Shown here piece by piece: positions 29,171 to 53,501 of a DNA stretch of 64,000 nucleotides. The notes below the pieces were generated by a model. That model saw nothing but the letters and a program-made list of their open reading frames with translations, was not told where the DNA came from and did no database searches. Positions within the stretch are counted from its first letter, which is position 1. Every line of letters starts with the position of its first letter. This DNA comes from an uncultured delta proteobacterium (GTDB taxonomy: Bacteria; Desulfobacterota; Binatia; UBA9968). The DNA lies in contig CAVUVW010000011.1 in the NCBI GenBank assembly GCA_963745035.1, forward strand, positions 96,001 to 160,000, read 5' to 3'. The translations under genes were made by a program, and so were the position numbers.

Positions 29171-29179
29171 TTCGCGGGA

Positions 29180-29332
29180 GTTCAAAACGTTCAATACGTT
29201 CAAACCGTTCAAGCCCTCACCCCGGATCACGTCCGGGGCAGGCTCTCGTTCCTCCCCCGCGACGCGGGGGAGGATGCAAGGAGGGGGTTTGAACGGAGCG
29301 TAGCGGTTGAACGGTTGGAACGTTTTGAACGC
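29180..29332. repeat. TTGAACG/CGTTCAA short-repeat intergenic palindrome
   Basis: Repeated TTCAAA.CGTTCAA arms and their complements around a GC-rich hairpin; relatives at ~3817-3850, 11549-11585 and 27758-27845. Confidence 0.6.
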
Positions 29333-29337
29333 TTATA

Positions 29338-32624: not shown

Positions 32625-32877
32625 CAACGAAATAATTTATTGCGAGGCCTCGCGCAATGGAGTGCTAGTAGGCCACTTGATTCGGAATCAAGTTCGTTCT
32701 GCGCTCAGGCGCGTCTGCGGGTCGTGGTGTCACAGCTCTAACGGGCTTTCGCCAGATTTCTTCGAGTCGCCCCTGGCAATGGTAGAGTCGGGGTTTGACA
32801 ACTTCCTGCTATCTAACCGATAGTGACTTAACTCGCCTCGATGCTGCACGGTAGACGGCACCTCGGGAAGCAACAAA

Positions 32878-33884: not shown

Positions 33885-33914
33885 AATTGAATTAAATTCT
33901 CCACCAGTATTAGC
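33885..33914 (+). repeat. R2: core A half-site upstream of the recombinase
   Basis: AATTGAATTAA ATTCTCCA CCAGTATTAGC. Confidence 0.75.
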
Positions 33915-33972
33915 CGGGCGCTGAAACTGTCGTATCCTCCTCTCTCTAAAAACAAGGGAGAGGAGAAAAGTC

Positions 33973-34875: not shown

Positions 34876-34899
34876 AATGTGCCGTCGTTCAGTTCAATT
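34870..34899 (+). repeat. R3: core B half-site overlapping the recombinase stop codon
   Basis: GGCTAGAATGT GCCGTCGT TCAGTTCAATT. Confidence 0.85.
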
Positions 34900-35123
34900 C
34901 TGCAAGGTATCCTAAATTCGTCCCTTTTTTTCTGCATACAAAGCAACTTCTTGTGGTCCTATTAATGGAAAGCGACACGGCGAAAATAACAGAGAAGGGT
35001 GGGAGCCAACACATGTGCAGGAGATCCGTTTGCAAGACGATAGTTTCTATTTGAAGTTTGTTCAATATTAGACAGCAATCGTGACCTAGGAGTATATCGT
35101 GATGTCTCATACTGGAGGTCGTC

Positions 35124-38798: not shown

Positions 38799-38812
38799 GT
38801 TCTGGATGCTAG

Positions 38813-38880
38813 GATTGAATTGAATTCTCCACCAACGCAATCTCGCGCGGCATCACATTGAAGCGTCGTTCAGTTCAATC
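38813..38880 (+). repeat. composite site R5 (full)
   Basis: TAG GATTGAATTGA ATTCTCCA CCAACGCAATC ... TTGA AGCGTCGT TCAGTTCAATC CTA. Confidence 0.95.
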
Positions 38881-38960
38881 CTACGGGTCCGCGAGCACTT
38901 CTTATTTGACAAATCCCTTCGTTCGGCGTGATAAATAACGCTCGAAACTCTGGGTGTGCA

Positions 38961-39251
38961 ATGAAGAAAGCTCGTCTGTCATCAATCCTGATTGCGGTAC
39001 TGATGCTCGCTGTTGCCGTCATGGCCGTCATCACGGTTTGCGATGGAGCGAGAGAATCGTGTCCGCTTTTTCCCGGCCAGCCAGAGATTGCCCATTGGAA
39101 TATCCCCGATCCGACCAGGGCTACTGGATTGAAGGAAATCGATAAGTACAGGGATGTCGCACAGCAAATTCAGCAGCGTGTGCACTTGCTTTGTGCGTTC
39201 CCGATAGAAAAGCTGGGCCACTTGGCACCAGAACAGCGTGCAACCTCATAA
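38961..39251 (+). pseudogene. chimera: ABC SBP signal peptide fused to an ArsC/LMW-PTP C-terminal fragment
   Basis: MKKARLSSILIAVLMLAVAVMA + VITVCDGARESCPLFPGQPEIAHWNIPDP. Confidence 0.75.
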
Positions 39252-39626
39252 CCGGGCTGCGAGTGCTGTTAATGGACCAGCGCCTTTGCTCATGCAGCAC
39301 GGGGGCTTTGAAAGCTCTTGTATCGCTACCGAGTCAAATAGCCGGTCCAGAAACAGCGGACATTGTTGCGGTGCTCTTCAGAATGTCTGGCGGCAGAAGC
39401 CTGTAATGCTCCGATAGGCGAAGCGCATGTTTTGGCAAATTCAAACGGTAACCCTGAAGTTCGAAACAAATGCCAAACAACTAAAGGCCAAACTCGCCTC
39501 CCTGTCGCCTCTCCCGCAAAGTCACGGGAAGGCGACAGGAAAGGGTTGAAAGGCTAGGACGTTTGGAACAGTCCGCACGTTTTTCTTTTTCTGCAAACGG
39601 CGCAAAATTCGGGTAGCAAATAAGCC

Positions 39627-42600
39627 ATGACTGCTACAGCTCCAATTATCACGCTCTCGCCGCGGGATTACGACGCGGTTTTGTTCGACCTCGACGGTGT
39701 ACTGACGAAAACGGCGACCGTGCATGCCGCGGCATGGAAAAAACTGTTCGATGGATATCTAAAGCAGCGCGCCCAAGACACCGGAGGACCCTTCGTCGCC
39801 TTCGACATCGATGCCGACTACCTGCGCTATGTCGACGGCAAACCGCGTTACGATGGCGTGGTGTCTTTTCTCCACTCGCGCGGAATTGATTTGCCGTTGG
39901 GTTCGGCCGGCGACGCGCCCGGCACGGGAACGGTACATGCTCTCGGCAAGCTAAAGGATCGATACTTCACGGAGAGTCTGGAGGAGCAAGGCGTCGAGAC
40001 TTATGAACCGACGATCTCTCTCGTGCGCACGCTGCGCGCGCAAGAGATCAAGACCGCGGTCGTCTCTTCGAGCAACAACTGCGCGGCAGTTCTGCAGGCC
40101 GCCGGCATCGCGCATCTTTTCGATACGCGGGTTGATGGCAGGGAGATCGCCCGCCTCGCGCTCAAAGGCAAGCCGGCGCCCGATGCTTTCCTCGAAGCGG
40201 CGCGGCGTCTGGCTGTCGAGCCGTCCCGCGTCGTCGTCGTGGAGGACGCGATCGCCGGCGTCGCTGCGGGACGTGCCGGCCGTTTCTGCTGTGTGATCGG
40301 TGTCGATCGAGGTGGGCATTCTAAGGCGCTGCGTGAGGCCGGTGCTAATGTCGTGGTAACGAGCTTGGCGCAGGTTAGGATCAGTCCAGAACCCGCCTCC
40401 GCCTGGACGCTAGTGTATGAAGGATACGAGCCAGCGCGGGAAAGAATCCGCGAAGCCCTATGCGCGCTAGGGAACGGCTATTTCGCTACTCGTGGAGCAG
40501 CGACCTGGGCGCGGGCGGATGAGATTCACTACCCCGGGACCTACCTCGCCTGCGGCTATAACCGAATGCGCACTGATATTGCGGGCCGGATTGTCGAAAA
40601 CGAAGATCTCGTCAATCTTCCCAATTGGCTCCCCCTCGAATTTCGTATCGGCGAGGAGGACTGGTTCGATCCGGCGACGGTCACGATCCGTCTTTATGAT
40701 CAGCGGCTAGATCTGCGACGTGGCATGCTGCTGCGAACGATCCGCTTCGAAGATCGCCAGGGGCGGCAGACTACGCTGAAGGAACGCCGTCTGGTGTCCA
40801 TGAGCGACATGCATGTGGCGGCGCTCGAGCTGAGTCTTTCTGCCGAGAATTGGTCGGCCAAGGTCACGGTGCGTGCATCAATCGACGGCCGGATTGTCAA
40901 TAGCGGCGCGCAGCTCTACCTCAAATTCAACAACAAACATCTCGAGTTGCTGGAGCGCCAGGTCCTCGACAGCGACGGCGTTTATATGCTCGTGCGCACC
41001 AGCCAGTCACATATTTACGTCGCCCAGGCGGCGCGAACTCAAGCGTTTGTCGACGGCAAAATCCGTGAGGTGCCGCGCCGTGTTATCGAAGAGCCGGAAT
41101 ACATCGGGCAAGAGATGGTGATCGACGTGCGGCAGGGCGAGACTTTGGCCCTCGAGAAGATCGCGTCTTTCTACACCTCGCGTGATCAAGCTATTTCGGA
41201 GTGCGGTTTGGCGGCGCGTAAGGCGATTGGCCGGGCGGGCCGCTTTGACGCGGTGATGGCCGAGCATGTTCTTTCCTGGAAGCACTTGTGGCGCCGCTTC
41301 GATGTGCATATTCAGCCGGCCGAACCGGGATTCAAACTGAATGTACTGATGCTGTTGCGGCTGAACATGTTTCATCTCTTGCAGGCCGTCTCGCCCAACT
41401 CGATCGGACTCGATATCGGCGTGCCGGCGCGCGGCTGGACCGGCGAGGCCTACGAGGGCCACATTTTTTGGGACGAGCTTTTTATTTTTCCGTTCCTAAA
41501 TTATCGCATGCCGGAAATCACCCGCTCGTTGCTATTGTACCGCTATCGCCGTTTGGGGGAGGCGCGTGCCGCAGCGAGAATGGCGGGGTTGCGGGGCGCG
41601 ATGTTTCCCTGGCAAAGCGGCAGCGACGGGCAGGAAGAGACGCAGGAGCTCAACTTCAACCCGCGCTCACAGCGCTGGGTGCCGGACAATTCTTACCTGC
41701 AGCGCCATGTCGGCAGCGCCATCGCTTACAACGCTTGGCAGTATTATCAAGTCACTCACGATGTCGAGTTTATGCAAGCCCATGGCGCCGAGCTGATTCT
41801 CGAAATCGCTCGCTTTTGGTCGAGTATCGCGAGTTTCAACGAGGAGAGCGGTCGGTACGAGATTAGCGGGGTTATGGGCCCGGACGAGTTCCACGAGGGA
41901 TACCCCGGCTCATCGTCGCCCGGCCTTAATAACAATGCCTTCACTAACCTCATGGCGGCTTGGGTGCTGTGCCGCGCGCTCGATGTGCTCGAACTCCTTC
42001 CCGACATACGCCGCGCCGAGCTGAGCGCCCGACTCGGGCTATCGCCTGACGAGATTGTGCGATGGGGCGAAGTGAGCCGCAAGATGGTCGTGCCCTTTCA
42101 CGGCGACGGCATCATCAGCCAGTTTACAGGGTATGAAAATCTCGCTGAGCTGAACTGGGCGGACTACCGCGCCCGCTACGGCAATATTCAGCGGCTCGAT
42201 TTGATTCTGGAAGCCGAGAACGACAGTGCGAACCGCTACAAATTATCGAAGCAAGCCGACGTGCTGATGTTGTTTTATCTGTTTTCCGCGCAGGAGCTGG
42301 GCGAGCTGTTCAGGCGTTTAGGTTATCCGTTCGACCCTGAGATGATTCATCGCAACGTTGCCTACTATGACGCGCGCTCGTCGCATGGTTCGACGCTCTC
42401 GCGCGTAGTCCATGCGTGGGTGTTGGCGCGTTCGGACAGGCCGCGCTCGATGACTTATTTCGCCGAGGCACTGCAGAGCGATGTCAGCGATATTCAGCAA
42501 GGGACTACCGCCGAAGGTGTTCATCTCGGCGCTATGGCGGGATCGGTAGATCTGGTGCAGCGCGTCTCGACAGGCATCGAAATTACCGGCGACGTTCTGC

Positions 42601-42869
42601 GACTCGATCCACAATTGCCCCAGGAAATGGAGCGGCTCGACATGCGCATTCGCTACCGCGGACATTCGCTCGATTTGCGGCTAACCCGCGATACCCTGAC
42701 AGTGCGCGGCCGCGAGCGCGGTGTCGCTGCGATCAAGCTGGGAATCAAAGACGAGGTATACGACTTTCAATGCGGCAGCACGCGCGTCTTCAAACTCACC
42801 CGCGAACAGGCTGAAAGCAATGCATCAGATAGGACGATCACCGCCAAGGGCCGAAGAGCCCGAAGCTAA
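39627..42869 (+). CDS. HAD (beta-phosphoglucomutase-like) plus GH65 trehalose/maltose phosphorylase-family fusion
   Basis: FDLDGVLT, GKPAPD, LGNGYFATRG, GHIFWDE, GPDEFH, KQADV, HGSTLS. Confidence 0.92.
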   Translation: MTATAPIITLSPRDYDAVLFDLDGVLTKTATVHAAAWKKLFDGYLKQRAQDTGGPFVAFDIDADYLRYVDGKPRYDGVVSFLHSRGIDLPLGSAGDAPGTGTVHALGKLKDRYFTESLEEQGVETYEPTISLVRTLRAQEIKTAVVSSSNNCAAVLQAAGIAHLFDTRVDGREIARLALKGKPAPDAFLEAARRLAVEPSRVVVVEDAIAGVAAGRAGRFCCVIGVDRGGHSKALREAGANVVVTSLAQVRISPEPASAWTLVYEGYEPARERIREALCALGNGYFATRGAATWARADEIHYPGTYLACGYNRMRTDIAGRIVENEDLVNLPNWLPLEFRIGEEDWFDPATVTIRLYDQRLDLRRGMLLRTIRFEDRQGRQTTLKERRLVSMSDMHVAALELSLSAENWSAKVTVRASIDGRIVNSGAQLYLKFNNKHLELLERQVLDSDGVYMLVRTSQSHIYVAQAARTQAFVDGKIREVPRRVIEEPEYIGQEMVIDVRQGETLALEKIASFYTSRDQAISECGLAARKAIGRAGRFDAVMAEHVLSWKHLWRRFDVHIQPAEPGFKLNVLMLLRLNMFHLLQAVSPNSIGLDIGVPARGWTGEAYEGHIFWDELFIFPFLNYRMPEITRSLLLYRYRRLGEARAAARMAGLRGAMFPWQSGSDGQEETQELNFNPRSQRWVPDNSYLQRHVGSAIAYNAWQYYQVTHDVEFMQAHGAELILEIARFWSSIASFNEESGRYEISGVMGPDEFHEGYPGSSSPGLNNNAFTNLMAAWVLCRALDVLELLPDIRRAELSARLGLSPDEIVRWGEVSRKMVVPFHGDGIISQFTGYENLAELNWADYRARYGNIQRLDLILEAENDSANRYKLSKQADVLMLFYLFSAQELGELFRRLGYPFDPEMIHRNVAYYDARSSHGSTLSRVVHAWVLARSDRPRSMTYFAEALQSDVSDIQQGTTAEGVHLGAMAGSVDLVQRVSTGIEITGDVLRLDPQLPQEMERLDMRIRYRGHSLDLRLTRDTLTVRGRERGVAAIKLGIKDEVYDFQCGSTRVFKLTREQAESNASDRTITAKGRRARS

Positions 42870-43078
42870 ACCGTCGAGAGTCCTTGATGAACTTCGTGTG
42901 CTTCGCGATGAGATCCTATTAATGAATACAGGACGGAAAAATCTAATTGAAGTCAGGGTAAGCTGGTCGGGAGCGGACTGGCGGAAGAAGTTTGCTCTCG
43001 GCCTGCGAATCAGGAAGTCGCGGGATTTGGCGGCTTTGTGATCCCCATGGTGTCGCTCGCCGTGTCGATTGCTCGTGC

Positions 43079-43231
43079 TTGTCCGCCTTTTGTCCGTGTA
43101 CCAGAAACAACAAGCCCCAAGAACTGCCGTTGTAAGCAGCGCTCGGGGCTTGACTTTGTTGGGCTTTGACCGCTGCTTTAGGTTCTAGTCACGATCGATT
43201 TTCGAATGGCATTCAAGTGGTGACCGGGTCG
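43079..43231 (+). other. att-like remnant: TTGTCCG direct repeat plus degenerate tRNA-Ala(GGC) fragment
   Basis: TTGTCCG x2; CAAGCCCC..GGGGCTTG hairpin; GAATGGCATTCAAG at 43204-43217. Confidence 0.5.
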
Positions 43232-43307
43232 GCCTAGCACGATCGAGCGGATAAAATCGTTATAGAGATTCTTGTAGCTCGCATCGTTGAATCCAGCATC
43301 GCGCCAG

Positions 43308-43337
43308 GATTGAACTGATTTCTCCATCAATTCAGGT
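43308..43337 (+). repeat. R6: solo core A
   Basis: GATTGAACTGA TTTCTCCA TCAATTCAGGT. Confidence 0.9.
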
Positions 43338-43719
43338 GGAGCGCAGCGCTCGGTGCTTCCCCGGCCTCTCCAGACTGGGAGTCTGGCGCGGCGATATCTA
43401 TGGTGGCATGTCTGGAGGGAGAGATTTAGTCAGCGCTTTCGAGCGTGCAACCGTCCGGCGCGACCTTGAAGATTGAAGCATCGGGAATCGTCACGTAGCC
43501 GTCCAGCCGCTTGCAGTAGTACAGCTTGACGATCGTTTCGCTTGGTATCAGTTCGCCCTCCGGGTCAATGATTTCCCGAAGACAAAAATAAGCAAGCTGA
43601 AAAGAACGTCACCGAAGAAGAAGACAAGAAGAGCGCGCTTAATTGCAGGTGCCATTGTCACACGCCGAAACACAAGCACTAGCGGGTCTTCAGCTCTAAC
43701 TGTGCTTGATAAACGCGGA

Positions 43720-43932
43720 TCATCTGTCGTGGTCGATCCACTTCTTTCCGTAACGAATGCCCCAGGCTTCGGCTTCGGCTACCGAATCGAAGGTATCTTC
43801 CGGTTTCAAAGGTTGAAAAGTTTCGCGGCCCTCCTCACCCCAGGAGACCATGACGCTCGCAATCCATTTTTGGCTGTCTGGCGTCTGATGACCTACTGAT
43901 TCAATTCTACGGCTAGCGTACAGGCGTCTCAT
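43720..43932 (-). CDS. small hypothetical protein (…EAEAWG…KKWID family)
   Basis: 70 aa, similar to 49590-49889. Confidence 0.6.
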   Translation of the reverse strand: MRRLYASRRIESVGHQTPDSQKWIASVMVSWGEEGRETFQPLKPEDTFDSVAEAEAWGIRYGKKWIDHDR

Positions 43933-44187
43933 GGTTTCCTCGGGTCAAAAAATCCTTGGCTGGATATAAGTCCTGCCGTCCCAGCCGTTTTTCTTCCTAA
44001 ATTCCTGTAGGTACTGCTCTACCAAAAACTGCGCTTCCTGCTCCGAAATAATCCCATGCATCCGCGCAGACGCAATAGTTTTCCCCCAAATACGCGCTTC
44101 GAGTTCCGTCCGATTCACATGGCCTCCGAGTTTGAAAATCCAAAACGTCTACCATGTTCCATTCGGAAAGCCAACCGACAAACGTTC

Positions 44188-44502
44188 TCATGCTATCAGC
44201 GTATTGCTCGGGTCATCCGGCAAGTCAAGTTCGCCGACCTCACCTATCGGCTTGCCGATGTTCTTCTGAAGCACGGTATAAATTGTCCGGCAAACACTGG
44301 AGTCCCGGCACAACAGCCGGCCCATGTACGTCTCATCTTCAATTTGAGTTGTCAGGTAACAAATCGTGATCGGATTGACCCGAGAGAGGGCGACATTTGT
44401 CAGCGTGGCAGAATCATGTGGTACTTTTTTTTCGTGTGATCCCGACAGTGAGAGCCAATTCGGCGGCCAAGCGCTTATCCCAGGGTGTTCTCGTAGTTTC
44501 AT
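44188..44502 (-). CDS. hypothetical protein
   Basis: 104 aa ATG-start ORF with globular composition. Confidence 0.6.
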   Translation of the reverse strand: MKLREHPGISAWPPNWLSLSGSHEKKVPHDSATLTNVALSRVNPITICYLTTQIEDETYMGRLLCRDSSVCRTIYTVLQKNIGKPIGEVGELDLPDDPSNTLIA

Positions 44503-44629
44503 GGCGCGCCGAATAAACAGAAATCACGCGTGGGTGTCAAGAGACCGCGGAAATTGTCAGAAAGCCGACAATAGGTAGCTGAAACGATTTGGCGGGAACC
44601 GGAGAGTTGTTGAGTGACTATCGCGAGAG

Positions 44630-44798
44630 TGTGGCCAAACATAGCGTCGGCCTCCATGCCGGTGGCATCGGCCATAATGTTTGCATAAACAGCCAAACCA
44701 GACATCGCGGTTAATTCCACTATTTCGGGCTGACCGAGGCCATGCGAGCGCACGCTTTCATAGTCTGCTTCAGATAAGCTCAGCACGCACATCAACAC
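44630..44798 (-). pseudogene. carboxymuconolactone decarboxylase/AhpD-like C-terminal fragment
   Basis: EADYESVRSHGL..EIVELTAMSGLAVYANIMADATG. Confidence 0.6.
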
Positions 44799-45173
44799 GC
44801 ACCCCCGGGCTTGATTTGCTTGATTCGCCTGCGATAGAAGGCGCAGTTAGACCGCTTGCAGCGGTATCTGGAAAGGGGTTCCGCAGCAGTAACCACTTTG
44901 CAAGAGTGAGGAGGGTTCCGTCCGATGCAACACACCCCGAAGCTGAAGGAAAACCGACTTCAACGCTATTCCACAGAACGTCTCGTCATGGAACCGCATA
45001 GAGACAAACAGTTGATTCCAACTTGGTTGAAAACTTTCACATTCTTGGGAGCCGCCGGCGCCGCTTCTCTGATCGTGGCTGCGTCGCTTTTCACGCTTTC
45101 ACAACAGGATTTTCCACTGCTCCATGGATTCTTAAGTTGGTAACTCACCGCCGCCGCGGATCGTAACCAGGGA

Positions 45174-46175
45174 ATGCAGGCGCGTGCACATTTGTTCGCC
45201 CGGGGAAAACCTATGGATACGAAAACGGGAATGCTCATCCTGCTGATCGTCGGCCAATTGCTTGCTACTGACGTGTGGAATGTTCATTCGGCCGAAGAAG
45301 TCGTTGGACAATACTTTTTTCAATTCGGCATTGGTGAGGTTACTGGTGAGTTCTCAAAGGCAGAGCGGCGCTATACAATTTCGGGGAGGTATGCGGTCGG
45401 TCACGACTTCAACACTGAGCCACCGTTTAATCCCGCCAAACGGAAGCTGGAGGCCTCCTTCGACTGGGTCGCTGAGGGGCGATATAATCCTGCCACCAAC
45501 GCCACCAGCGAGAAATTGGATCTATTCAATACGAACACTCGCGCGTCTGCCGGGTCTCTTACATCAACAATGGTGTGCGACCGAGATCCATGGCTGGAGG
45601 CATCCGTCGGCCCGTGCCAATTTGTCGTTACCACTGCCAGTGGTAGCCCACCCGGGACATTCGTTTTAGATATCAGTCCAGTGGCCCCAAGCGTTCCGTT
45701 TTCGTCGGCGCTGACCACAACCGAACGTTGGCGGTTGAACCGTCAGTACGACATCTTCCTCGCGGCGCGCCAAAAACTCGAACCTTTACTGACGCCCACG
45801 TATGAATCGACCGCACCCAGTATCGTCGCGCCGGCTCAGAATGGCTACATGATTCACAGGAAGTCGAAATTTATTATCCAACCCGCTCCAAACTTCAGCG
45901 GCACCGAAATCCTCGTGGAGTTTACGCCGCCCGACGCACCCGCCGGCCAAGCTCCCGAGAAAGTTGTTTGGCAAATGTCAACAAGCATTCTTAGTCTGGG
46001 TGCCGATATTCCGTACGCGATCTTCGGAACACGGGAGGGGACCTGGGCAATGCGTGCCCGCATAAACGTGCCGACACCCGGCGCCTTTACCCGGGAAGTC
46101 CGATTTCAGTACCTTATGCAAAGTCCATTCGTGAACCTCCCGTCAGAGAGATCGGTTGAGCTGCCGGGTCGGTGA
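45174..46175 (+). CDS. hypothetical secreted protein
   Basis: 333 aa ORF with hydrophobic leader; no family recognised. Confidence 0.65.
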   Translation: MQARAHLFARGKPMDTKTGMLILLIVGQLLATDVWNVHSAEEVVGQYFFQFGIGEVTGEFSKAERRYTISGRYAVGHDFNTEPPFNPAKRKLEASFDWVAEGRYNPATNATSEKLDLFNTNTRASAGSLTSTMVCDRDPWLEASVGPCQFVVTTASGSPPGTFVLDISPVAPSVPFSSALTTTERWRLNRQYDIFLAARQKLEPLLTPTYESTAPSIVAPAQNGYMIHRKSKFIIQPAPNFSGTEILVEFTPPDAPAGQAPEKVVWQMSTSILSLGADIPYAIFGTREGTWAMRARINVPTPGAFTREVRFQYLMQSPFVNLPSERSVELPGR

Positions 46176-46221
46176 GAAACTGATCGCCAAAAAGCGGCGT
46201 CGCGCCTTGCGTTATCCTTTT

Positions 46222-46251
46222 AACTGAATTGAATTCTCCGCCGGTACACTA
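46222..46251 (+). repeat. R7: degenerate solo core A
   Basis: AACTGAATTGA ATTCTCCG CCGGTACACTA. Confidence 0.55.
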
Positions 46252-46368
46252 GCGTTCTCCAGCCAAAGCGATTTGACTGATGGACCCGTCACAGGAGAAG
46301 TCGACCGGCGTTTACTACGACAGCTCACTTAACAGGTGGTGTCGATACTACGCTCAAAGGACACATCG

Positions 46369-46730
46369 ATGGAGAAGAGCGTCTGGGCGAGTGGCCAAGC
46401 GTATGAGCCCTACGTAGGTCGTTGGAGCCGACGGGCGGCTCGCGAGTTCGTCGGGTGGCTTGCGGTTCCGCCTGCTGCTCGGTGGCTTGATGTCGGATGC
46501 GGTACGGGAGCGCTGACTGAAACGATTCTGCGTTGCGCAAGTCCCTCCGAAGTTATGGTATCGCCCCTTCGGAGGGCTATCTTGGCCTCGCGCGCGAGCA
46601 GGTTCGAGATCCCAGAGTTCGCTTCGACGTCGGCGATGCTCGCCACCTTTTAGTTGAACCGGCGCGATGCGATGCTGTAGTGTCCGCACTCGTGCTCAAC
46701 TTCATTCCGGATCTTCCTGCGGGACTGGCG
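46369..46730 (+). pseudogene. class I SAM methyltransferase, frameshifted and truncated
   Basis: AYEPYVGRWSR, WLDVGCGTG, DAVVSALVLNFIPD. Confidence 0.8.
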
Positions 46731-46849
46731 GGCAGTCCGCGGCCGGGCATCCCAGTAGGGAGCAACGGTGAAGCATATTGCGGCCCAGCCAATCATTGCT
46801 GCGGACGCGGCAAATACGTTGCGCTGCTGAGTGACTCGGTTATTCCTGA

Positions 46850-46913
46850 GATTGAACTGATTTCTCCATCAAGCCAATCTTGCCAGATTAATGGTGCGTC
46901 GTTCAGTTCAATC
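46850..46913 (+). repeat. composite site R8 (full, short linker)
   Basis: GATTGAACTGA TTTCTCCA TCAAGCCAATC ... TGCGTCGT TCAGTTCAATC CTA. Confidence 0.92.
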
Positions 46914-47026
46914 CTACGTCCAAATTAGCCTTTTCTCCCTCGATGAATCGGTTTTCCTTCTGCCGTAAATAACACTTTTCTCAGCTTCCGTGTCCGTGAT
47001 AAGTCTTGTCACGAACGAGGCGCGAA

Positions 47027-48027
47027 ATGAAAAAACGAGTTGGTCATCAATCCTGGTTGCAGCCATGCTGCTCGCTGTTGCAGTCATAGCCGAGGCGCAG
47101 CAGCAGGCGAAGAAGGTACCTCGGATAGGGTATCTAGCATCGAGAGACCCGGCTACGGAGTCCACGCGGTCCGAGCCAGTTCGACTGGCTCTGCGGGAGC
47201 TTGGCTACATAGAAGGAAAGAACGTCGTCATCGACTACCGATATGCGGAGGGGAAGCGTGATCGCTACCCTGAGCTTCTGGCCGAACTGGTCCGTCTCAA
47301 GGTTGATGTCATCGTGGCAGCAGGAGGCGAGCCGACGGTCCGGGCGGCCATTAAAGCGACGAAGACGATTCCCATCGTAATGACAGGTGGTGGGGCCGAT
47401 CCTGTCGAGGCAGGCTATATCAAAAGCCTTGCCCGTCCCGGCGGCAACGTCACCGGCATTACGAACCTTGGCTTAGAGCTAGGCGGAAAACGGCTGGAGT
47501 TGCTCAAAGAAGCTCTTCCCAAGGTGGCCCGTGTCGCGGTTCTCTACGATCCGGCGGCAGGTTCAGACTTCCTACGCGAGGTGAATGAGGATCTCCCAAT
47601 CGCGGCACATGGGTTGGGTTTGGATATTCGGTCTTGGGAGGCACGAGCTGTGGGCGATTTCGAAAGGATATTCGCTGCGCTAAACAAGGAGCGCCCCGAT
47701 GGGCTCTATGTGACCGGGAGCCTGCTCTTTCATACTAACCGAAAACGGATTGTCGAGTTTGCGTTACAGAGCCGGTTACCGTCTGTATACAGTAGAAGAG
47801 AATATGTAGATGAAGGGGGGCTCATATACTATGGGGCGGACCTCGCGGACAGCTACCGGCGTGTCGCATATTACGTGGACAAAATTCTCAAAGGTACGAA
47901 GCCTGCGGACTTGCCTGTCGAACAACCTGCAAAGTTCGAGCTGGCGATCAATCTTAAAACCGCAAAGCAGATCGGTCTGACGATTCCACAAAAAGTGTTG
48001 TCGCGGGCGGATAAGGTGATCAAGTAA
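47027..48027 (+). CDS. ABC transporter substrate-binding protein (ABC_sub_bind, Trp/Tyr-type)
   Basis: LRELGYIEGKN, SLARPGGNVTG, GTKPADLPVEQP, RADKVIK*; start probably frameshifted in an A-run. Confidence 0.92.
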
Positions 48028-48044
48028 CCACCCGGCGACGCTAG

Positions 48045-48104
48045 GATTGAACTGAATTCTCCATCTAATCAGTCTCGCCTTAGATCAACCTGAAGCGTCG
48101 TTCA
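48045..48104 (+). repeat. composite site R9 (last arm truncated)
   Basis: GATTGAACTGA ATTCTCCA TCTAATCAGTC ... GATCAACCTGA AGCGTCGT TCA. Confidence 0.9.
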
Positions 48105-48227
48105 TGTTGGAGCCGCATTCGAAAAAGCGAAGATAGAGCGTACCCAAGGGCTTCTCGTAAATGCTCGATTCCGATCGGGTTAAAGCCCTCCAATAAAGCA
48201 TTTTCTTCCTTCCCAAATTTTTTACAC

Positions 48228-48257
48228 GATCAAACTGAAGCGTCGTTTAGTTGAATT
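48228..48257 (+). repeat. R10: solo core B
   Basis: GATCAAACTGA AGCGTCGT TTAGTTGAATT. Confidence 0.85.
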
Positions 48258-48646
48258 CTAGGCGCGCCAACCCTGCCGCCAAGCTGAAAGCGCCTCGCAA
48301 AAAACTGTTTCACCTCCGCTGTTTCTCAGAGAAACGGAGGTGACGGTGACCTCTGTCCGTACAAGAAAATTCATCGATCCGCCGTTGGAGGCCCACCGCC
48401 TCGGGCTACTCATTAAAGGGATGTGAGTAAATTTCCTACCGACTCTAACTCTGAGTGTCTGCTTATCCAAACATTGTGAAAGGTTTGTTCACTAAATTTC
48501 ACGCGGTTGTGCTGGCATATGGATTGCCAGACTAAAAAGGATGTGAATTCACCTACTCAGCCCTACGAAGCGCGACTTGTGTGTAGGGTCAGTCGTTTTT
48601 AACCGGGATGGCCTTAAAAAGAGAAATAAAACAAATAAAGTAGTTT

Positions 48647-49066
48647 ATGAAAAAAATCTTCTCGGCGCTCCTATTTTTACAACTCTTGGTGTTGGCATTG
48701 ATGGCGCCGAATCTGTTTGCAGATGAAAGACGGGAATTCATTTCGAAAACAATGAATCCGGAGGTTCAAAAGCTTTTGGAAAACTGCGGCAGAGAAATAA
48801 TTGGCGAGGAGCCATTTTCAAGCAAGAATAATAATATCATGAACTATATGATCGGCTTTTATGATACCGATCACGGTTTGCTTGTTACGCTTCAAGCATT
48901 ACAGCAACGATTAAATGAGCATGGACGCGCGATCCCGGATGTTTATTCTAGCGAACTTGTGGCGATTGTATTCGTTGATCGATCGCTCTTGTGGTATAAA
49001 TCTCAAACCGCTAAGAGCACCTTAAAAGCAAAAATGGCGCGGTTAATGCAAAACCGATCTATTTAA
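48647..49066 (+). CDS. hypothetical exported protein, AT-rich
   Basis: 139 aa with signal peptide MKKIFSALLFL. Confidence 0.65.
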   Translation: MKKIFSALLFLQLLVLALMAPNLFADERREFISKTMNPEVQKLLENCGREIIGEEPFSSKNNNIMNYMIGFYDTDHGLLVTLQALQQRLNEHGRAIPDVYSSELVAIVFVDRSLLWYKSQTAKSTLKAKMARLMQNRSI

Positions 49067-49246
49067 GCAGGCACCCTGCTTTTTATTTTTCTTTGAGTCC
49101 CGCATCGTAACATACCTCGAACTCCTCTCAACTTAGACGCCCTCCGTGCCGTTATCATCGAGCGCCGAACACTTTGCGAGTGACCCCTCACCCGTTTGGG
49201 TAGATCTTAGGAACCAGTTTATTAAACAACCATGCGACGATGCCAG

Positions 49247-49294
49247 GATTGAACTGAATTCTCCATCAACGCAATCTCGCCTGAAACACATTGA
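49247..49294 (+). repeat. R11: core A plus linker, truncated at spacer B
   Basis: GATTGAACTGA ATTCTCCA TCAACGCAATC TCGCCTGAAACACATTGA. Confidence 0.9.
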
Positions 49295-49589
49295 CGTTCG
49301 CATGTGTCCTCAGTGTAAGTCGCCGCACGTGCCGAAAGACCAGAGGCGGGAGCGCTAAGATGCCATTTCGCGTTATGCGGCGATGGGCCTTATACATGCG
49401 ACATTTCCCGTTCTCGCGAATGGAAAACTTAGATGTTTAGAACGCGCAGCGAGAGAGAGGAGGCAGAAAATGTGTGGACTAGAAATCTTTACTGATTAGA
49501 GTGCGGCTATCCCATGGATGGTTGGTGGTTACTCAGTACGTTTGGTCGGGACTTGGAATATCTGCCAAACAGGCATCAGTCGCCCGTGG

Positions 49590-49889
49590 TTACTTGATCA
49601 CTCTATCCGAAGCGCCCATATCCAAAGTGTCCTCTCTCCCCGCCCGCGCCAGCACATTCGGCGGAATCGTCACCCGCGATGAACGTTCGGCGTCCGGGAC
49701 GAGTGACAGATCCGGTTTTCCATCATCGATCCATTTCTTTGCGAATCTAAGACCGTCCATTTCCGCTTCTTCTCGTAGACGAAACGTTCGATTAACAGTT
49801 AACTTACTAGTTATCCCTTTACCATCTTCGCTCCAAATTATTGTAAGGCATAGCTTCCACTGACGCGGGGCCAGTCGCGAGGAGGACAC
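49590..49889 (-). CDS. small KKWIDDGKP-type protein fused to an ABC SBP C-terminal tail
   Basis: EEAEMDGLRFAKKWIDDGKP then VTIPPNVLARA...DRVIK*. Confidence 0.55.
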   Translation of the reverse strand: MSSSRLAPRQWKLCLTIIWSEDGKGITSKLTVNRTFRLREEAEMDGLRFAKKWIDDGKPDLSLVPDAERSSRVTIPPNVLARAGREDTLDMGASDRVIK

Positions 49890-49959
49890 GAGGATCCTAT
49901 GACCTTTGTGAGTTGCGTTGATGAATTTTTCTCCTAGATGTTGGTGGGCGAGTTCCTAC

Positions 49960-50352
49960 TTAGGAAGCCAGCAAATGGGTCCGCAGGACATCCCGTAGCA
50001 GTGGCAATTGTAACGGCTTGTACAAGATCTCTGCAGCGCCGGCATTAAGCGCGCGGTCGGCACGTTCTTCAACGTTGAAGTCGGTGGTCCACCCGCTATT
50101 TAAGACCACCGGGATATTGCGAGTGGACATATTCCTCTTTAATTGCACCGTTACTTCATCTCCATTTAACCCGGGCAAACGTATGTCCATCATGATCAGA
50201 TCAGGACGAAGGCTGAAAGCCTTGTCGAGGCCCTCTGGACCCGTAGCCGCTTCGACAACTTCGTGGCCCAAACCATTGAAAAACCCTCGAAGCGATTCTC
50301 GAAACTTTTCGTTGCCATCGACGATCAATATTTTTTTAGCCGTGTTGTGCAT
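49960..50352 (-). CDS. single-domain response regulator receiver
   Basis: KILIVDG, PDLIMMDIRLPGLNG, KP. Confidence 0.88.
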   Translation of the reverse strand: MHNTAKKILIVDGNEKFRESLRGFFNGLGHEVVEAATGPEGLDKAFSLRPDLIMMDIRLPGLNGDEVTVQLKRNMSTRNIPVVLNSGWTTDFNVEERADRALNAGAAEILYKPLQLPLLRDVLRTHLLAS

Positions 50353-50525
50353 GGAAGAAGCCTAGCAGCACAAGATATGCCAGCGCTTCAAATGTCAGTA
50401 TTTTGGTATTTTGTCGCCTTTAGCGCCTATGCAGCGATGTTTGGCGCTGCGACTTGCTTGGAGAATGACTGTCACTTTGCCAAGATTCGCGGGCCGTGCC
50501 TGCTCAGCCTTGGCGTTAGCGCCAG

Positions 50526-50594
50526 GATTGAACTGCATTCTCCATCAACGCAATCTCGCGTGGCATCAACATTGAAGCGTCGTTCAGTTCAATC
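50526..50594 (+). repeat. composite site R12 (full)
   Basis: GATTGAACTGC ATTCTCCA TCAACGCAATC ... ATTGA AGCGTCGT TCAGTTCAATC. Confidence 0.95.
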
Positions 50595-51202
50595 TCAGGC
50601 TAAATCTGGTCCTCCCAGTCGACGAATATCTGTTGCCTTCGTATCGTAAATCCGAGTTTCGTAGCGATTCGAATTCAGCCAGATCTTCGAGGCTCATCGC
50701 CCAGGATAAACAAAGACTCTGCCGGGAAATCTCCCCTTGGGCTAAAACGTGGGATCAATACATCATCGCGCCGGATTATGATTATAATTTACTCGGTGGG
50801 TGCGCTGGGTGTAGAGTTCGTATATTGGTTGAATCTCTCTTTTAAGGGGAAACTTTATGGATAAAAATGCGCCTGGCCTTGATGTCGGAACTAAGTGCGG
50901 ACATTCGTGTACAAGACTAGATGGCCCCATTAAGAATGACTTTGGTTGTTGTATTTGTATGGGCGAGACGCAGTTGTGTACATCGTGCGAAAAGAGAAGA
51001 CTCTCGGAAGATCCCGTTGGGGAGAAGGACGAAAGTGTCAACACACCTGGAAGCCGAAAAGATTAAGGTTTAGGAACCGGCGTTGGATCGACGGCCTCGG
51101 CTAGAATAGCGCGAATCAACCGGATCTTTTGCCCGACAACTTTTTGAGATCGTAAGTTACGGTCTCGTGGCGCGGGCGGGTAAAGTGATGAAGTGACGCC
51201 AA

Positions 51203-51232
51203 GATTGAACTGTATTCTCCATCAATTCAATT
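51203..51232 (+). repeat. R13: solo core A
   Basis: GATTGAACTGT ATTCTCCA TCAATTCAATT. Confidence 0.9.
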
Positions 51233-51321
51233 TCACGTCGATGACCCTGGAGTGCTACGGTCCGTGCTGCCCGGCCCTTTTCCTGCGCGGGCGGACAGAG
51301 TGATAAAATAAGGAGCGCATT

Positions 51322-51984
51322 ATGATCGGTGCCAAGGCTCTGTTAGAAGGGATTCGGCAAGATTTGCAGCCCGTCACGGAACGGCTTCTGGGGCATCCTT
51401 ACGTGAAGGCTCTGGAGGAAGGGCAGATTGAGCGGGAGAAGCTCCGTCTTTTTGCCGGCGAGCAGTACAGCATCATAGCGAGTGATCTCAAAAGCGTCGC
51501 TTATTTGCTTAGCCGCTTCGGTAGCGCTCCGAGCCGTGATTTCTTTCTCGGAATCCTGCAGGGTGAAAGAGCTGCCTGGGATGGCTTGCTAACGTTCGTC
51601 AATGCCCTCGGCCTAAGCGAAGCTCAACTGAGCAAGCACGAGCCAGCGGCTGGCGCTCATGCCTACACCTGCTACATGGCGTGGCTTGCGCTCTATGCCT
51701 CTGACGCCGAGATTGCTGCTGCCTACCTGGTCAATTTTCCAGCGTGGGGTCAGAACTGTGGCCGCCTGAGCCGGATTCTGAAAGAGCGTTTCGGTATGGG
51801 CGAGAAGGAAGTCGCTTTTTTTGATCTCTTCGCCTCTCCTCCAACTACATTTGAAGCCGACGCTCTGAAAGTTATTCAGCAGGGACTCGATCGAGGCATC
51901 GAGCCGAGCCTGATCCAACGGGCGGCTCGGTTACTCCAGGCCTACGAGCTCATGTATTGGGATACCCTCTACGGGGCGTCTTAG
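51322..51984 (+). CDS. TenA/THI-4 family protein
   Basis: HPYVKAL..G, AYTCYMAWLA, YELMYWD. Confidence 0.85.
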   Translation: MIGAKALLEGIRQDLQPVTERLLGHPYVKALEEGQIEREKLRLFAGEQYSIIASDLKSVAYLLSRFGSAPSRDFFLGILQGERAAWDGLLTFVNALGLSEAQLSKHEPAAGAHAYTCYMAWLALYASDAEIAAAYLVNFPAWGQNCGRLSRILKERFGMGEKEVAFFDLFASPPTTFEADALKVIQQGLDRGIEPSLIQRAARLLQAYELMYWDTLYGAS

Positions 51985-52045
51985 CCGTGCTGGCAGGGCG
52001 GATAAAGTGATCGAGTGAGCGAAGAAAACCAAGCGGCAATGCTAG

Positions 52046-52113
52046 GATTGAACTGAATTCTCCATCAAACCAATCTTACGTCTCATCCAACTGAAGCGTC
52101 GTTCAGTTCAATC
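52046..52113 (+). repeat. composite site R14 (full)
   Basis: TAG GATTGAACTGA ATTCTCCA TCAAACCAATC TTACGTCTCATCCAACTGA AGCGTCGT TCAGTTCAATC CTA. Confidence 0.95.
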
Positions 52114-52264
52114 CTACATGGCTGTTTTTGTGATGGTCTGGCCGAATAGGCCGCCGATTCGTTAGGCAGATAAGCTGCCGTGCCGGTCGGCTTTTTAGCG
52201 AAAAACTCTAACGTTGACAATCCAGGTGAGCTGATGGATATTCCACGCAATTTGAACTTTTATT

Positions 52265-52340
52265 GTCCAAGCTGTCGCCGAGATAAGCCGACCGGCATTT
52301 GTCGCCGCCTACGGCGGCGCGGCTCACTTAATAGTTAGAC
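52265..52340 (+). other. degenerate attC ending in GTTAGAC
   Basis: GCCGCCTACGGCGGC hairpin, GGCTCACTT, R' GTTAGAC at 52334-52340. Confidence 0.6.
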
Positions 52341-52374: not shown

Positions 52375-53170
52375 ATGGAACCCAACCTGCATACGGATGC
52401 CAATAAGTACCAGGCCGGGATGGGAGGCTGGAGTAAAACTCTTGCTCCTCTATTCATCGAATTTATAGGAGGTATCAAAGAAGGGGATCGGGTGTTAGAT
52501 GTAGGCTGTGGTACGGGTTCACTCACAAACACCATTGCTGATACAACAAAAGCCGCAACAGTTATCGGCATCGACCCTTCAGTAGGCTACTTAGAATATG
52601 CCCGTACACACAATACACGTTCGCACGTTTCCTTTGAAATCGGGGATGCTCAGAAACTTTCCTATGACAATGGCTCTTTCGACTGCTGCGTATCTTCGTT
52701 GATGATTCAATTTGTCTCGGCTGCGGACGCGGCAGCAAGAGAAATGAGGCGCGTCACAAAGAACGCGCGGAACTGTTGCAACTTGTGTATGGGACAACAG
52801 TGGAGGCATGGAGTTAGCCGAAAGATTCTGGGATGCGGCCATTGCAATTGACCCAGAAGCCAAACGAACTGGGAATAGCCGTTATGGATCGCCAAGCGCG
52901 CTTTCAGATTTGTGGAGCGCCGCTGGTTTTGCGAATGTTGAAACAGGACCTCTGGTTATTCCTATGGAGTTTCCTTCCTTCGAGGATTTGTGGCGCATTC
53001 AGTCAGATGCGCAGGGACCGCCTAAACTTTATATCAGCAGTCTGTCTGAGGATCGCCGACAGTTATTGAAGGAGCGACTACGCGCGGACATTCTTGGTAA
53101 TCGCCCTCATGGATCGATTAGCCTTCGTGCAAAGGCTTGGGCAGTGCGTGGGATAGTGCCGGCAGGGTAG
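52375..53170 (+). CDS. class I SAM methyltransferase, integron cassette gene (frameshift ~52770)
   Basis: RVLDVGCGTG, IGIDPS, AKAWAVRG; ORFs 52375-52851 and 52808-53170. Confidence 0.85.
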
Positions 53171-53294: not shown

Positions 53295-53351
53295 GTCTAA
53301 CTTTCCGCTTCAAGCCGCCGCATGACGCGCGGGCTGAGCGCGGCGTTAGCG
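53295..53351 (+). other. integron attC site
   Basis: R'' GTCTAAC (complement of upstream GTTAGAC) ... GCTGAGCGCGGC GTTAGCG. Confidence 0.7.
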
Positions 53352-53355
53352 CCAG

Positions 53356-53423
53356 GATTGAACTGAATTCTCCATCAAACCAATCTTACGTCTCATCCAA
53401 CACAAGCGTCGTTCAGTTCAATA
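53356..53423 (+). repeat. composite site R15 (full; island right end)
   Basis: GATTGAACTGA ATTCTCCA TCAAACCAATC TTACGTCTCATCCAACACA AGCGTCGT TCAGTTCAATA. Confidence 0.95.
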
Positions 53424-53501
53424 CCGGAAAAAAATTCTCCTTAAGGCCCACACATTTTCAGGAAATGAGAAAGGGGACATTCTGAAATTAGCCTGTGGGT
53501 C

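Follow-up and report, generated by a model that had tools for sequence, protein, structure and literature searches.

The window analysed here, a 64,000-nt stretch of DNA from the genome of an uncultured soil bacterium of the Binatia (contig CAVUVW010000011.1, positions 96,001 to 160,000), carries a cassette array spanning 32.5-53.4 kb in which imperfect palindromes of about 100 nt stand between the cassettes, and starts and ends of one ABC substrate-binding protein (SBP) family recur beside these repeats. Why they do so is the question that this locus raises. The initial annotation had proposed a frequent or ancestral site-SBP-site module whose interior gets replaced, and a repeat system that could contribute to the copy number of the family. 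Each palindrome is laid out as an L arm, a spacer and an R arm, as in integron attC sites, and 11 L arms and 9 R arms were located between 32553 and 53429, every one on the plus strand. The following elements are used below, with the repeat numbers of the initial annotation in brackets.

33886-34907, plus strand: Xer-like tyrosine recombinase gene (33973-34875, frameshifted twice), flanked by an L-like arm (33886-33903) and by an R arm (34882-34907)
38807-38886, plus strand: attC-like site (R5), L arm 38807-38849 and R arm 38852-38886, from sequence comparison
43302-43344, plus strand: L arm without R arm (R6)
46844-46919, plus strand: attC-like site (R8), followed by a cassette-specific leader (46920-47026)
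48039-48263, plus strand: attC-like site (R9) whose spacer carries an insert of about 150 nt, L arm 48039-48081 and degenerate R arm 48229-48263
49241-49283, plus strand: L arm without R arm
50520-50600, plus strand: attC-like site
51197-51239, plus strand: L arm without R arm (R13)
52040-52119, plus strand: attC-like site (R14)
53350-53429, plus strand: attC-like site, the last of the array

The palindrome has an outer stem of 13-14 bp, an unpaired central part and a variable spacer, and its core boxes, ATTGAAC and GTTCAAT, each fit only six of seven positions of the attC consensus (RYYYAAC / GTTRRRY). The motif order of attC is given as R''-L''...L'-R' in the description of the site by Ghaly et al. 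(2021, PMC8352920). No covariation was seen in the paired stem because the stem is nearly invariant, and Rfam returned no match to the site. Genome-wide, 32 L arms (nhmmer E<0.01) are clustered at cassette-size spacing, and the cassettes are discrete mobile units, copies of one cassette being found in more than one array, beside other neighbours, at 94.8-98% identity (C11:147168-148115 and C13:1123646-1124598, 96.6%; C11:133508-134836 and C26:82181-83489, 94.8%; C13:1124573-1125509 and C6:4013-4951, 98%). At C13:1124573-1124598, two tracts of homology overlap only within the R arm, an invariant segment in which the exact crossover cannot be read. No integron integrase was found near the window array, the sole TIGR02249 match on the contig being the Xer-like gene (34 bits); the one integron integrase of the genome, IntI, lies on another contig (C6:42134-43036, 445.3 bits vs a cut-off of 265), and IntI exceeds the cut-off in 29 of 61 genomes of the family, a count that includes the unpublished G204. 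With at least two clustered attC-like sites and no integron integrase nearby, the window array would be a CALIN (a cluster of attC sites lacking an integron integrase). The repeats are probably recombination sites of attC type in a chromosomal integron whose cassette array has no adjacent integrase, and IntI would presumably act on them. By DNA search, the site was found in 3 of 13 other genomes of this family and in 0 of 187 from other families of the class, and by a covariance model, built from the sites of this genome and with SBP tails as flanks in some rows, in 34 of 60 family genomes.

Several arrays start with an R arm alone and finish with an L arm alone, as would not be expected from a plain integron model; in G234, the arms are found on the 3' side of intI and are not divergent from it. 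Both observations count against the explanation we favour below, as do the imperfect fit of the core boxes and the lack of covariation in the stem, and no array adjoining an IntI with sites shown to start at attI was found. Arrays that begin with R and end with L are what units bounded by R...L would give, and the arms could accordingly be the inverted termini of an element operated by the nested Xer-like recombinase, the 100-nt sites being miniature derivatives and the arrays not integron cassettes. The recombinase gene does sit between an L and an R arm in the window as well as in G234 (two copies), G237 and G210, and the inverted repeat reaches into the flanks; however, the gene is single-copy and frameshifted in this genome, IntI is common in the family, the G234 recombinase copies lie 5.5 kb from an IntI, and the L-R spacer is conserved from copy to copy, which is not what separate insertions side by side would produce. 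Moreover, the recombinase occurs in 5 of 60 related genomes vs 34 of 60 for the site, so that the association outside this locus by which the initial annotation would stand or fall was recovered for the repeat and was largely absent for the recombinase. We consider such a recombinase-driven element improbable.

The SBP gene and the partial SBP sequences of the window are the following.

38961-39027, plus strand: orphan SBP head, start codon and signal peptide MKKARLSSILIAVLMLAVAVMA
46990-48027, plus strand: full-size PF04392 SBP gene (Pfam E 9.3e-46)
49578-49672, minus strand: orphan SBP tail with a 12-nt post-stop linker of CCACGGGCGAC type (tail profile match C11:145640-145667, E 1e-4)
51167-51196, plus strand: orphan SBP tail VARAGKVMK-stop (alignment score 21)
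51987-52018, plus strand: orphan SBP tail (VLA, one-base shift, RADKVIE-stop) with an SBP-cassette-type linker before the L arm (score 22)

Between R8 and R9 lies an open frame of 345 aa that starts in frame at GTG 46990, ends RADKVIK-stop and matches PF04392 (ABC_sub_bind) over 46990-48024 with 156.8 bits vs a gathering cut-off of 25.9. The ATG at 47027 aligns with the ATG of the paralogous head at 38961 yet is one base off this frame, and the earlier wording "near-intact" is therefore fair. The signal peptide noted behind R5 is indeed paralogous (38967-39027 vs 47032-47092, 79% identity over 61 nt), and its head is fused, in ORF 38928-39251, to a remnant of the 3' part of an LMWPc/ArsC-type gene (34% over 74 aa vs C20:12798-13019, where the gene matches PF01451, E 5e-13). 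The family C-terminal motif, derived from 84 gene ends of this genome, is LTIPPNVLARAD[KR]VI[KR]-stop, and relics were accepted on a regular-expression match, on an alignment score of at least 21 or on a DNA profile match, the null of 2000 random 70-mers having a 95th percentile of 11 and a maximum of 16. The tail before R13 terminates a non-SBP cassette (orf69, 50857-51066), and 51168-51231 is homologous to the tail and L arm that close complete SBP genes in G199, G221 and G202, the G199 counterpart being a full SBP cassette with R arm in a genome of the same genus. Before R14, RADKVIE-stop is preceded, one base out of frame, by GTGCTGGCA (VLA) and followed by a linker resembling that downstream of the full-size SBP gene at C2:62569. 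On the minus strand, ORF 49590-49889 ends in VTIPPNVLARAG-REDTLDMGAS-DRVIK-stop with a 10-aa insert, so that an SBP tail (49590-49672) closes an unrelated 99-aa ORF; the homology runs exactly up to the point at which an L arm would have its outer edge, and the post-stop linker was compared with 48028-48038 by eye. Three of the 11 window L arms are preceded by an SBP tail. A further tail, suspected from "RADKIV" at about 43244 upstream of R6, was rejected, as no stop follows and its score of 9 falls below the 95th percentile of the null. The observation behind the initial annotation is thus confirmed apart from this candidate.

Across the 7.43-Mb genome, the pattern R[AV][DNGK][KRQN][VI][IVM][KRE]-stop occurs 91 times vs once in the reversed genome, and a DNA profile of the last 45 nt gave 101 matches at E<=0.1 vs 0. 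An SBP tail lies within 76 nt upstream of 14 of the 32 L arms, where about 0.015 were expected (computed for 31 arms), and an L arm lies within 300 nt of 15 of the 91 tails. Orphan tails were enriched in cassette regions (7 of 17) relative to the armless tandem arrays (13 of 77 tail matches; Fisher P = 0.045), and degenerate second tails occur before the next gene in the tandem arrays. A specific link of orphan tails to the repeat was not supported, since such tails also occur where no arm is detectable.

The site-SBP-site unit is frequent as proposed, with about 10 full-size SBP cassettes in this genome and a similar series in the related genome G241. The sites might then drive the replacement of interiors, stack SBP cassettes and largely cause the family expansion, the armless arrays being old cassette arrays whose sites have eroded. 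G241, where 6 full-size SBP genes each have an L arm behind them within 15 kb (with one orphan tail beside an L arm), would suit such a course, as would the lone L arm between two tandem SBP genes in G202 (L037 1513-1539), the enrichment of orphan tails in cassette regions and the correlation of site count with SBP-candidate count over 61 genomes (Spearman 0.65, kin not independent). This correlation is what a causal role of the sites would also give, but it is inflated by the SBP tails in some flanks of the covariance model. The genome holds 127 PF04392 matches and 102 SBP gene models, of which just 14 lie in cassette regions and 88 outside, 79 of them in four compact tandem arrays (C2 1-26.5 kb, C14 386-426 kb, C17 177.5-204.5 kb and C15 1-3.8 kb) without a detectable arm even at nhmmer E<=1. 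The intergenic spaces of these arrays contain 7-8-nt periodic spacers rather than arm remnants, and the arrays lack the cassette leader; furthermore, of the 19 family genomes in which SBP candidates number 50 or more, 9 have no more than two sites of this type. Hence the repeat system was not borne out as an important cause of SBP copy number, and we regard site-driven expansion as unlikely.

The other half of the initial interpretation, replacement of interiors, fared better. On the tree, the 7 cassette SBPs tested require 7 separate origins, of which well-supported branches enforce at least 5, and their monophyly was rejected (p-AU 1.1e-39). In the two cassette SBPs compared directly with their nearest tandem-array paralogues, those on C6 and C14, identity rises from background to 73-100% exactly between the end of the signal peptide and the stop codon, with abrupt borders in both: for C6, the match to array or stand-alone copies (88-91% identity) is confined to positions 188-1119 of 1149, and for C14 the corresponding stretch, 196-1118, has 89% identity. 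The leader at 46920-47026, by comparison, has 6 counterparts at 82-91% identity, each of them immediately behind an R arm, and was found in cassettes only, being absent from the tandem arrays. That the mature coding part alone is shared with array paralogues, together with the polyphyly, indicates that interiors were exchanged while heads and tails stayed. We infer that the exchange was homologous rather than site-specific, and likewise its direction.

The explanation that we hold to be probable is homologous recombination and deletion between cassette and array paralogues, not a site-driven expansion of the family, which leaves the initial interpretation partly supported. The PF04392 SBP gene would be the commonest cargo of this site type in this Binatia family, in a canonical order of R arm, leader of about 100 nt, signal peptide, SBP, stop and L arm. 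Since the same genome holds 79 further SBP models in four tandem arrays, cassette and array copies would exchange sequence through ordinary homologous recombination or gene conversion. This would affect the conserved part coding for the mature protein, and the cassette leader with the signal peptide (the head) and the stop-proximal tail with the attC would remain in place. Non-SBP genes living inside SBP arrays could be carried along, and later deletions would reduce SBP bodies to heads and tails. SBP starts and ends would thus lie beside sites because the SBP is their commonest cargo and recombines with many copies elsewhere.

A non-SBP gene of this kind is found between R13 and R14.

51285-51311, plus strand: mini-tail ARADRVIK-stop, then a ribosome-binding site (RBS), the inherited 5' leader of TenA by comparison with related genomes
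51322-51984, plus strand: TenA/THI-4 family gene (PF03070, E 1.5e-20)

TenA (220 aa) has a second copy at C13:1123810-1124469 with 99.5% amino acid identity, and is flanked by two SBP tails in direct orientation, of which the one in front had already been read in the initial annotation. In five other genomes (G201, G202, G210, G216 and G234), TenA immediately follows SBP genes in arrays where neither L nor R arms were detected; the G201 counterpart of the TenA mini-tail is the end of a complete SBP gene, a tail-like stretch precedes the TenA RBS in G202 and G210 and, more degenerate, in G234 and G121, and in G210 a 45-aa orphan tail follows TenA. On this comparative sequence evidence, the tail before TenA arrived with TenA from an SBP tandem array, the ancestral place of TenA being behind an SBP gene in armless arrays; non-SBP genes of SBP arrays would thus bear an SBP mini-tail as a translation-start leader.

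The direct repeat around TenA might instead be due to the tail being a functional DNA element, either as a component of a longer recombination site or as the place at which an element integrates, duplicating the 3' end of the gene that it enters. Such duplication of the 3' end of the target gene is known from phage e14 in icd and from islands in tRNA genes. It would explain why tails persist beside arms, and it fits the minus-strand homology that stops at the expected outer edge of the L arm, as well as the near restriction of relics to the last 8-60 codons. However, 18 of the 32 L arms are free of a tail, and in intact genes the tail is free to vary at third codon positions, which therefore points to constraint on the protein and not on a DNA site. 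Orphan tails in armless arrays and the tail-like stretches before TenA in the armless arrays of other genomes further disagree with it. An integrating element was rejected as a candidate, the insert between the two tails being TenA alone, without an integrase of its own. The tail as a DNA element is already weakened by these results, and we think it has little likelihood. That relics cluster in the last 8-60 codons is not accounted for by random deletion; it counts against the explanation we favour and might reflect a preferred breakpoint.

The relics might also have been produced by the assembly of a repeat-rich metagenome-assembled genome, in which frameshifts split 32 of 82 full-size SBP models and several other window genes. 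Against this, the TenA cassette with both tails is present twice in the genome at 96.6% identity, it occurs on single contigs in soil or rhizosphere runs of three other studies (X2 record 14, 855 nt with 2 differences; X9 record 32; X4 records 23 and 24), and related arrangements are found in other assemblies. An artefact is already refuted for the relics, and has almost no probability left, single-base frameshifts being excluded from this statement. Contigs recovered in the same search show arm-to-arm joints, with just 21-27 nt on one side that could not be assigned.

Collectively, the locus presents an attC frame that has demonstrably exchanged its cargo with chromosomal paralogues, and in TenA a foreign gene within such a frame that is still marked by its earlier position in a tandem array, which bears on how integron cassettes arise. 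Beyond exchange between paralogues, we tentatively raise a stronger reading, itself rather doubtful, that SBP head and tail act as portable homology arms loading new cargo into ready cassette frames, with R arm plus leader before the cargo and tail plus attC behind it, so that any gene living in SBP tandem arrays, with TenA as an example caught in the act, could become a mobile integron cassette. If true, this would be a concrete natural route to new cassettes, a step that integron papers leave unexplained: the mechanism that creates novel cassettes is called unknown where Cury et al. (2016, PMC4889954) touch on it, and cassette genesis is treated likewise in the corresponding passages of PMC8352920. 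If the pattern were general, families with conserved ends could supply integrons with cassettes by plain homologous recombination. For annotation, short ORF ends of the RADKVIK-stop type in Binatia should be taken as relics of one family and not as new genes or sites.

Shufflons such as R64 Rci/pilV switch C-terminal gene ends by a recombinase, and the window resembles them in combining a tyrosine recombinase, repeated short sites and alternative C-terminal ends at one locus. Shufflon-type switching was nevertheless rejected: all window arms are direct, with no inverted sites, no constant or truncated 5' part of an SBP gene faces the tails, and the tails are near-identical in sequence, so that switching among them would change nothing. 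Orphan solute-binding proteins are known to undergo lineage-specific tandem-array expansions, for example Bug/TctC in Bordetella, and the family here is alike in its roughly one hundred paralogues, most of which have no transporter genes next to them and which stand head to tail in arrays decaying into fragments; it differs in being PF04392 and in having a minority of copies packaged as integron-type cassettes. As CALINs are characterized in the relevant parts of Cury et al. (PMC4889954), the window array shares with them at least two clustered attC-like sites, no intI nearby and an IntI elsewhere in the genome, cassette-size units, mostly co-oriented ORFs ending just before the site, and sites highly alike within the genome. 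Here, in contrast, one expanded paralogue family dominates the cargo, many sites are halves with just an L or just an R arm, cassettes share a conserved leader of about 100 nt, a Xer-like recombinase gene is nested inside one site, and the lineage is Binatia, for which a full-text search pairing "Binatia" and "integron" found no literature. With sedentary chromosomal integrons and their homogeneous, taxon-specific attC, as portrayed in the sections of Ghaly et al. (PMC8352920) concerned with them, the locus shares a site family conserved within a bacterial family. It is thus mostly known biology in a new lineage, distinguished from those integrons by a visible exchange of cargo with chromosomal paralogues.

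The near-intact SBP gene (PF04392, ABC_sub_bind solute-binding protein) reported in the initial annotation was recovered at window 46990-48027 (E = 9.3e-46), and the orphan tails (last codons and stop without a gene body) that it placed at 51167, 51285, 51987 and, on the minus strand, 49590 all matched the SBP tail motif. The gene shows an apparent one-base shift at 47027-47040, where metagenome coverage was low and no metagenome contig matched. The paralogous head (start and signal peptide) described at 38961 was likewise borne out, matching the 5' end of the intact gene at 79% of 61 nt and continuing into an LMWPc/ArsC-type gene fragment; 'RADKIV' near 43244, listed as a possible further tail, scored 9, had no stop and was discarded. 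In the genome as a whole (G000; 7.43 Mb in 28 contigs), 84 family ends read LTIPPNVLARAD[KR]VI[KR]-stop, a permissive regular expression covering the seven C-terminal residues and the stop gave 91 matches versus 1 in the reversed genome, and a DNA profile of the 3'-terminal 45 nt gave 101 (E ≤ 0.1) versus 0. The TenA cassette with both of its tails was also present on contigs of three unrelated soil/rhizosphere studies, so these relics are not artefacts of the G000 assembly.

On the plus strand of the window (C11:96001-160000), positions 32553-53429 contained 11 L arms GGATTGAACTGAATTCTCC and 9 R arms GCGTCGTTCAGTTCAA. At 7 places there and 8 elsewhere in G000, L and R arms lay ~30 nt apart and jointly formed a ~100-nt imperfect palindrome with an outer stem of 13-14 bp, whose folding exceeded that of shuffled controls (z = -2.7 to -3.4); the stem was invariant and displayed no covariation, and an Rfam scan of window 32000-54000 (E ≤ 0.1) yielded no family. 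The core boxes fitted the attC consensus at 6 of 7 positions. Open reading frames between sites were mostly co-oriented, with units of 0.7-4.5 kb, and several arrays opened with an R arm alone and closed with an L arm alone. Genome-wide, 32 L arms were located (nhmmer, E < 0.01), clustered on contigs C11, C13, C14, C2, C6, C1, C10, C26, C19 and C17; three cassettes reappeared in other arrays with different neighbours (94.8-98% identity), and at C13:1124573-1124598 the overlap of two homology tracts was confined to the R arm. An integron integrase (IntI) gene was identified at C6:42134-43036 (TIGR02249, 445 bits, cut-off 265); neither type of arm occurred within 20 kb of it, and upstream only a run of GTTCAA repeats was seen. 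From the sites, the cassette-size units, the IntI elsewhere in the genome and the recurring cassettes, we therefore read the window array as a CALIN, an integron cassette cluster without integrase (in the sense of PMC4889954), the sites agreeing with attC features only in part; a literature search found no integron paper for Binatia. Arm-to-arm joints in metagenome contigs (e.g. 51278 to 52090 and 49280 to 50570) gave no evidence for empty sites or excision, because one side spans only 21-27 nt and the joints match paralogous places such as C13:1958996.

Several further features adjoined the sites. At window 48082-48228, ~150 nt were inserted between the arms of one attC-like site, whose R arm is degenerate. 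A palindrome, CACTTGATTCGGAATCAAGTG, occurred at window 32669-32692, ~40 nt past the first attC-like site, and similar sequences adjoined R-only sites at C14:1010143, C26:54638, C2:64947 and C10:18633. A conserved non-coding element of ~245 nt, carrying a terminator-like hairpin and a TTGACA box and having no Rfam match, was found directly 3' of R arms at six places (74-88% identity).

Locations of the ~245-nt element
Window 52092-52338
C14:612935-613172
C10:18425-18658
C17:1324-1554
C26:80839-81078
C13:1121501-1121807

Runs of GTTCAA with a 9-nt period were also present at window 11529-11583, 27755-27843 and 29178-29340, and a similar run lay just upstream of intI (5260-5345 of L001, the stretch around IntI on C6); these runs may represent integrase-binding or attI-like sites. 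A Xer-like tyrosine recombinase gene was found in 5 of 60 family genomes; it always had an L arm ~450 nt ahead of the stretch coding for its catalytic domain and an R arm 6-10 nt past its stop, as if placed in the loop of an attC site. It was intact (319-328 aa) in three other genomes and carried two frameshifts in the window copy; one genome (G234) had two tandem copies, 5.5 kb from an IntI.

Xer-like recombinase loci
Window 33886-34907, frameshifted copy
L026, G234 contig C23
L027, G237 contig C8
L028, G210 contig C291

The PF04392 search returned 127 matches in G000, which, after chaining of fragments, gave 102 gene models: 82 were full-size, 50 of them in one frame and 32 split, and the rest comprised 11 tail fragments, 4 head fragments and 5 partial models. 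Among the 102, 79 were located in four tandem arrays, 14 in cassette regions and 9 elsewhere, and no arm was detectable in the four arrays even at E ≤ 1. The initial annotation had proposed that the family repeatedly abuts the repeat, and the genome-wide count upheld this from the side of the repeat only: an SBP tail lay just upstream of 14 of the 32 L arms (expected ~0.015), whereas an L arm lay ≤300 nt downstream of just 15 of 91 tails, most of the family thus not being beside the repeat.

Tandem SBP arrays
C2, 1-26.5 kb
C14, 386-426 kb
C17, 177.5-204.5 kb
C15, 1-3.8 kb

In the arrays at C2:1-26500, C14:386000-426000 and C17:177500-204500, stops were followed by spacers with a 7-8-nt period (GGCGTGA, GGCAACA, GTCAGTA and GATTTTC types), and many array intergenic spaces held a degenerate second tail just ahead of the next gene.

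Third codon positions of the tail varied like those of ordinary coding sequence, and 13 of the 77 tail-profile matches in tandem arrays without detectable arms were orphans. The decisive case for tails belonging to the family rather than to the site was TenA, which occurred within SBP tandem arrays, with no L or R arm found by the arm profiles, in five genomes of five other genera of the family. In G201, a complete SBP gene stopped 10 nt ahead of the TenA start codon; TenA was preceded by a 7-8-codon mini-tail and ribosome-binding site in G202 and G210, and by a more degenerate stretch in G234 and G121 (with no SBP gene in the G121 stretch examined); it was followed by a 45-aa orphan SBP tail in G210 and by the next SBP gene in G216. 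The tail at 51285-51311 is therefore the inherited leader of TenA. The tail after TenA (51987-52018) has a linker of the type found after the full cassette SBP at C2:62569, and is thus part of the attC frame. The tail at 51167-51196 and its L arm were homologous to the ends of complete SBP genes in G199, G221 and G202, and in G199, of the same genus as G000, the homologous end closes a cassette that is complete with its R arm. The orf69 cassette therefore derives from an SBP cassette that lost its body or had another put in its place; a search of 60 related genomes found no homologue of orf69 itself. Among nine loci of the response-regulator cassette in relatives, an SBP tail was present in two (L016 and L018) and arms in one (L018), so no history was gained for the minus-strand relic. 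The tail was also considered as containing a secondary IntI site (GATCAAG versus GTTCAAT), an idea that was dropped because insertion would split the tail and the relics keep it whole.

The initial annotation had further proposed that the interior of a site-SBP-site module gets replaced, and this pattern was found. In a maximum-likelihood tree of 69 SBP segments (≥180 matched profile positions, shorter fragments left out), the 7 cassette SBPs were scattered among array copies, requiring 7 changes, at least 5 of them forced by well-supported branches, and constraining the cassette SBPs together cost 308.8 log-likelihood units (p-AU = 1.1e-39). The C6 cassette matched copies in C17, C24 and C14 at 88-91% identity, limited to positions 188-1119 of 1149 nt, and the first SBP of the C14:130785-132919 cassette was 89% identical to C17:187766-188693 over 196-1118; in 30-column bins, identity stayed at background up to where the signal peptide ends, then climbed to 73-100% and fell back at the stop codon. 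The ~100-nt leader after the R arm recurred with 82-91% identity at 6 other places, all directly 3' of R arms and none in tandem arrays. Scatter in the tree, sharp identity borders and a cassette-only leader together indicate exchange of interiors within conserved frames: the cassette frame (R arm, leader and signal peptide at one end, tail and L arm at the other) is conserved, and the mature coding part stems from different array lineages.

By BLAST, the site was found in 3 of 13 other family genomes and in 0 of 187 genomes of the class's other families; with a covariance model built from 13 site copies, 34 of 60 other family genomes contained it. G241 gave 45 matches; there, one 15-kb stretch contained 6 full-size SBP genes with an L arm behind each, as well as a 42-aa orphan tail next to an L arm. 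Site count correlated with SBP candidate count (Spearman 0.65; 0.63 leaving out G000), to be taken with caution since both counts also correlate with genome size, kin are not independent and some rows of the model have SBP tails in their flanks; 9 of the 19 genomes having ≥50 SBP candidates had ≤2 sites. IntI exceeded the cut-off in 29 of 61 family genomes and had no clear link with site presence among 60 relatives (20 of 34 with the site, 13 of 26 without), a comparison confounded by kin and assembly quality. The IntI and site counts include the unpublished genome G204, and one family-genome count also the unpublished G208 and G232. At L037 (G202, contig C693), the 70 nt separating two tandem full-size SBP genes contained an L arm without R arm (1513-1539), possibly what remains of a cassette junction within a tandem array.

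Other cassette contents were also recorded. In a second head relic, at C26:83457-83586, spacer, R arm and leader were all missing, and an L arm ran straight into the mid-portion of an SBP signal peptide, followed by the mature N-terminus. The cassette opening with the orphan SBP head encoded a 1080-aa fusion of a HAD phosphatase domain and a complete GH65 glycoside phosphorylase (window 39627-42869). Paralogous SAM-methyltransferase cassettes at 46336-46928 and 52375-53170, the latter with an inverted copy at C26:96803-97375, were each split into two overlapping frames, which may reflect assembly errors.

As for mechanism, we lean towards the view that cassette SBPs exchange sequence with their many array paralogues by homologous recombination or gene conversion, deletions occurring besides. 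Two features are not accounted for by this mechanism, namely that relics nearly always comprise the last 8-60 codons and that their share is higher in cassette regions (7 of 17) than in arrays (13 of 77; P = 0.045). The sources of this pattern may be selection that preserves the next gene's leader (the TenA case), ascertainment beside intact arms, or a recombination hot spot in the tail, whose GCTGGCGCGG resembles the E. coli Chi sequence. What is new here is the link between CALINs and SBP expansion, namely an exchange of cargo between cassettes and tandem arrays that is captured in the case of TenA; this exchange, inferential and drawn from a single genome family, bears on the open question of cassette origin (PMC4889954 and PMC8352920). 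Set beside known CALIN-type arrays, the window array, on our reading, is of the same type, here in Binatia.
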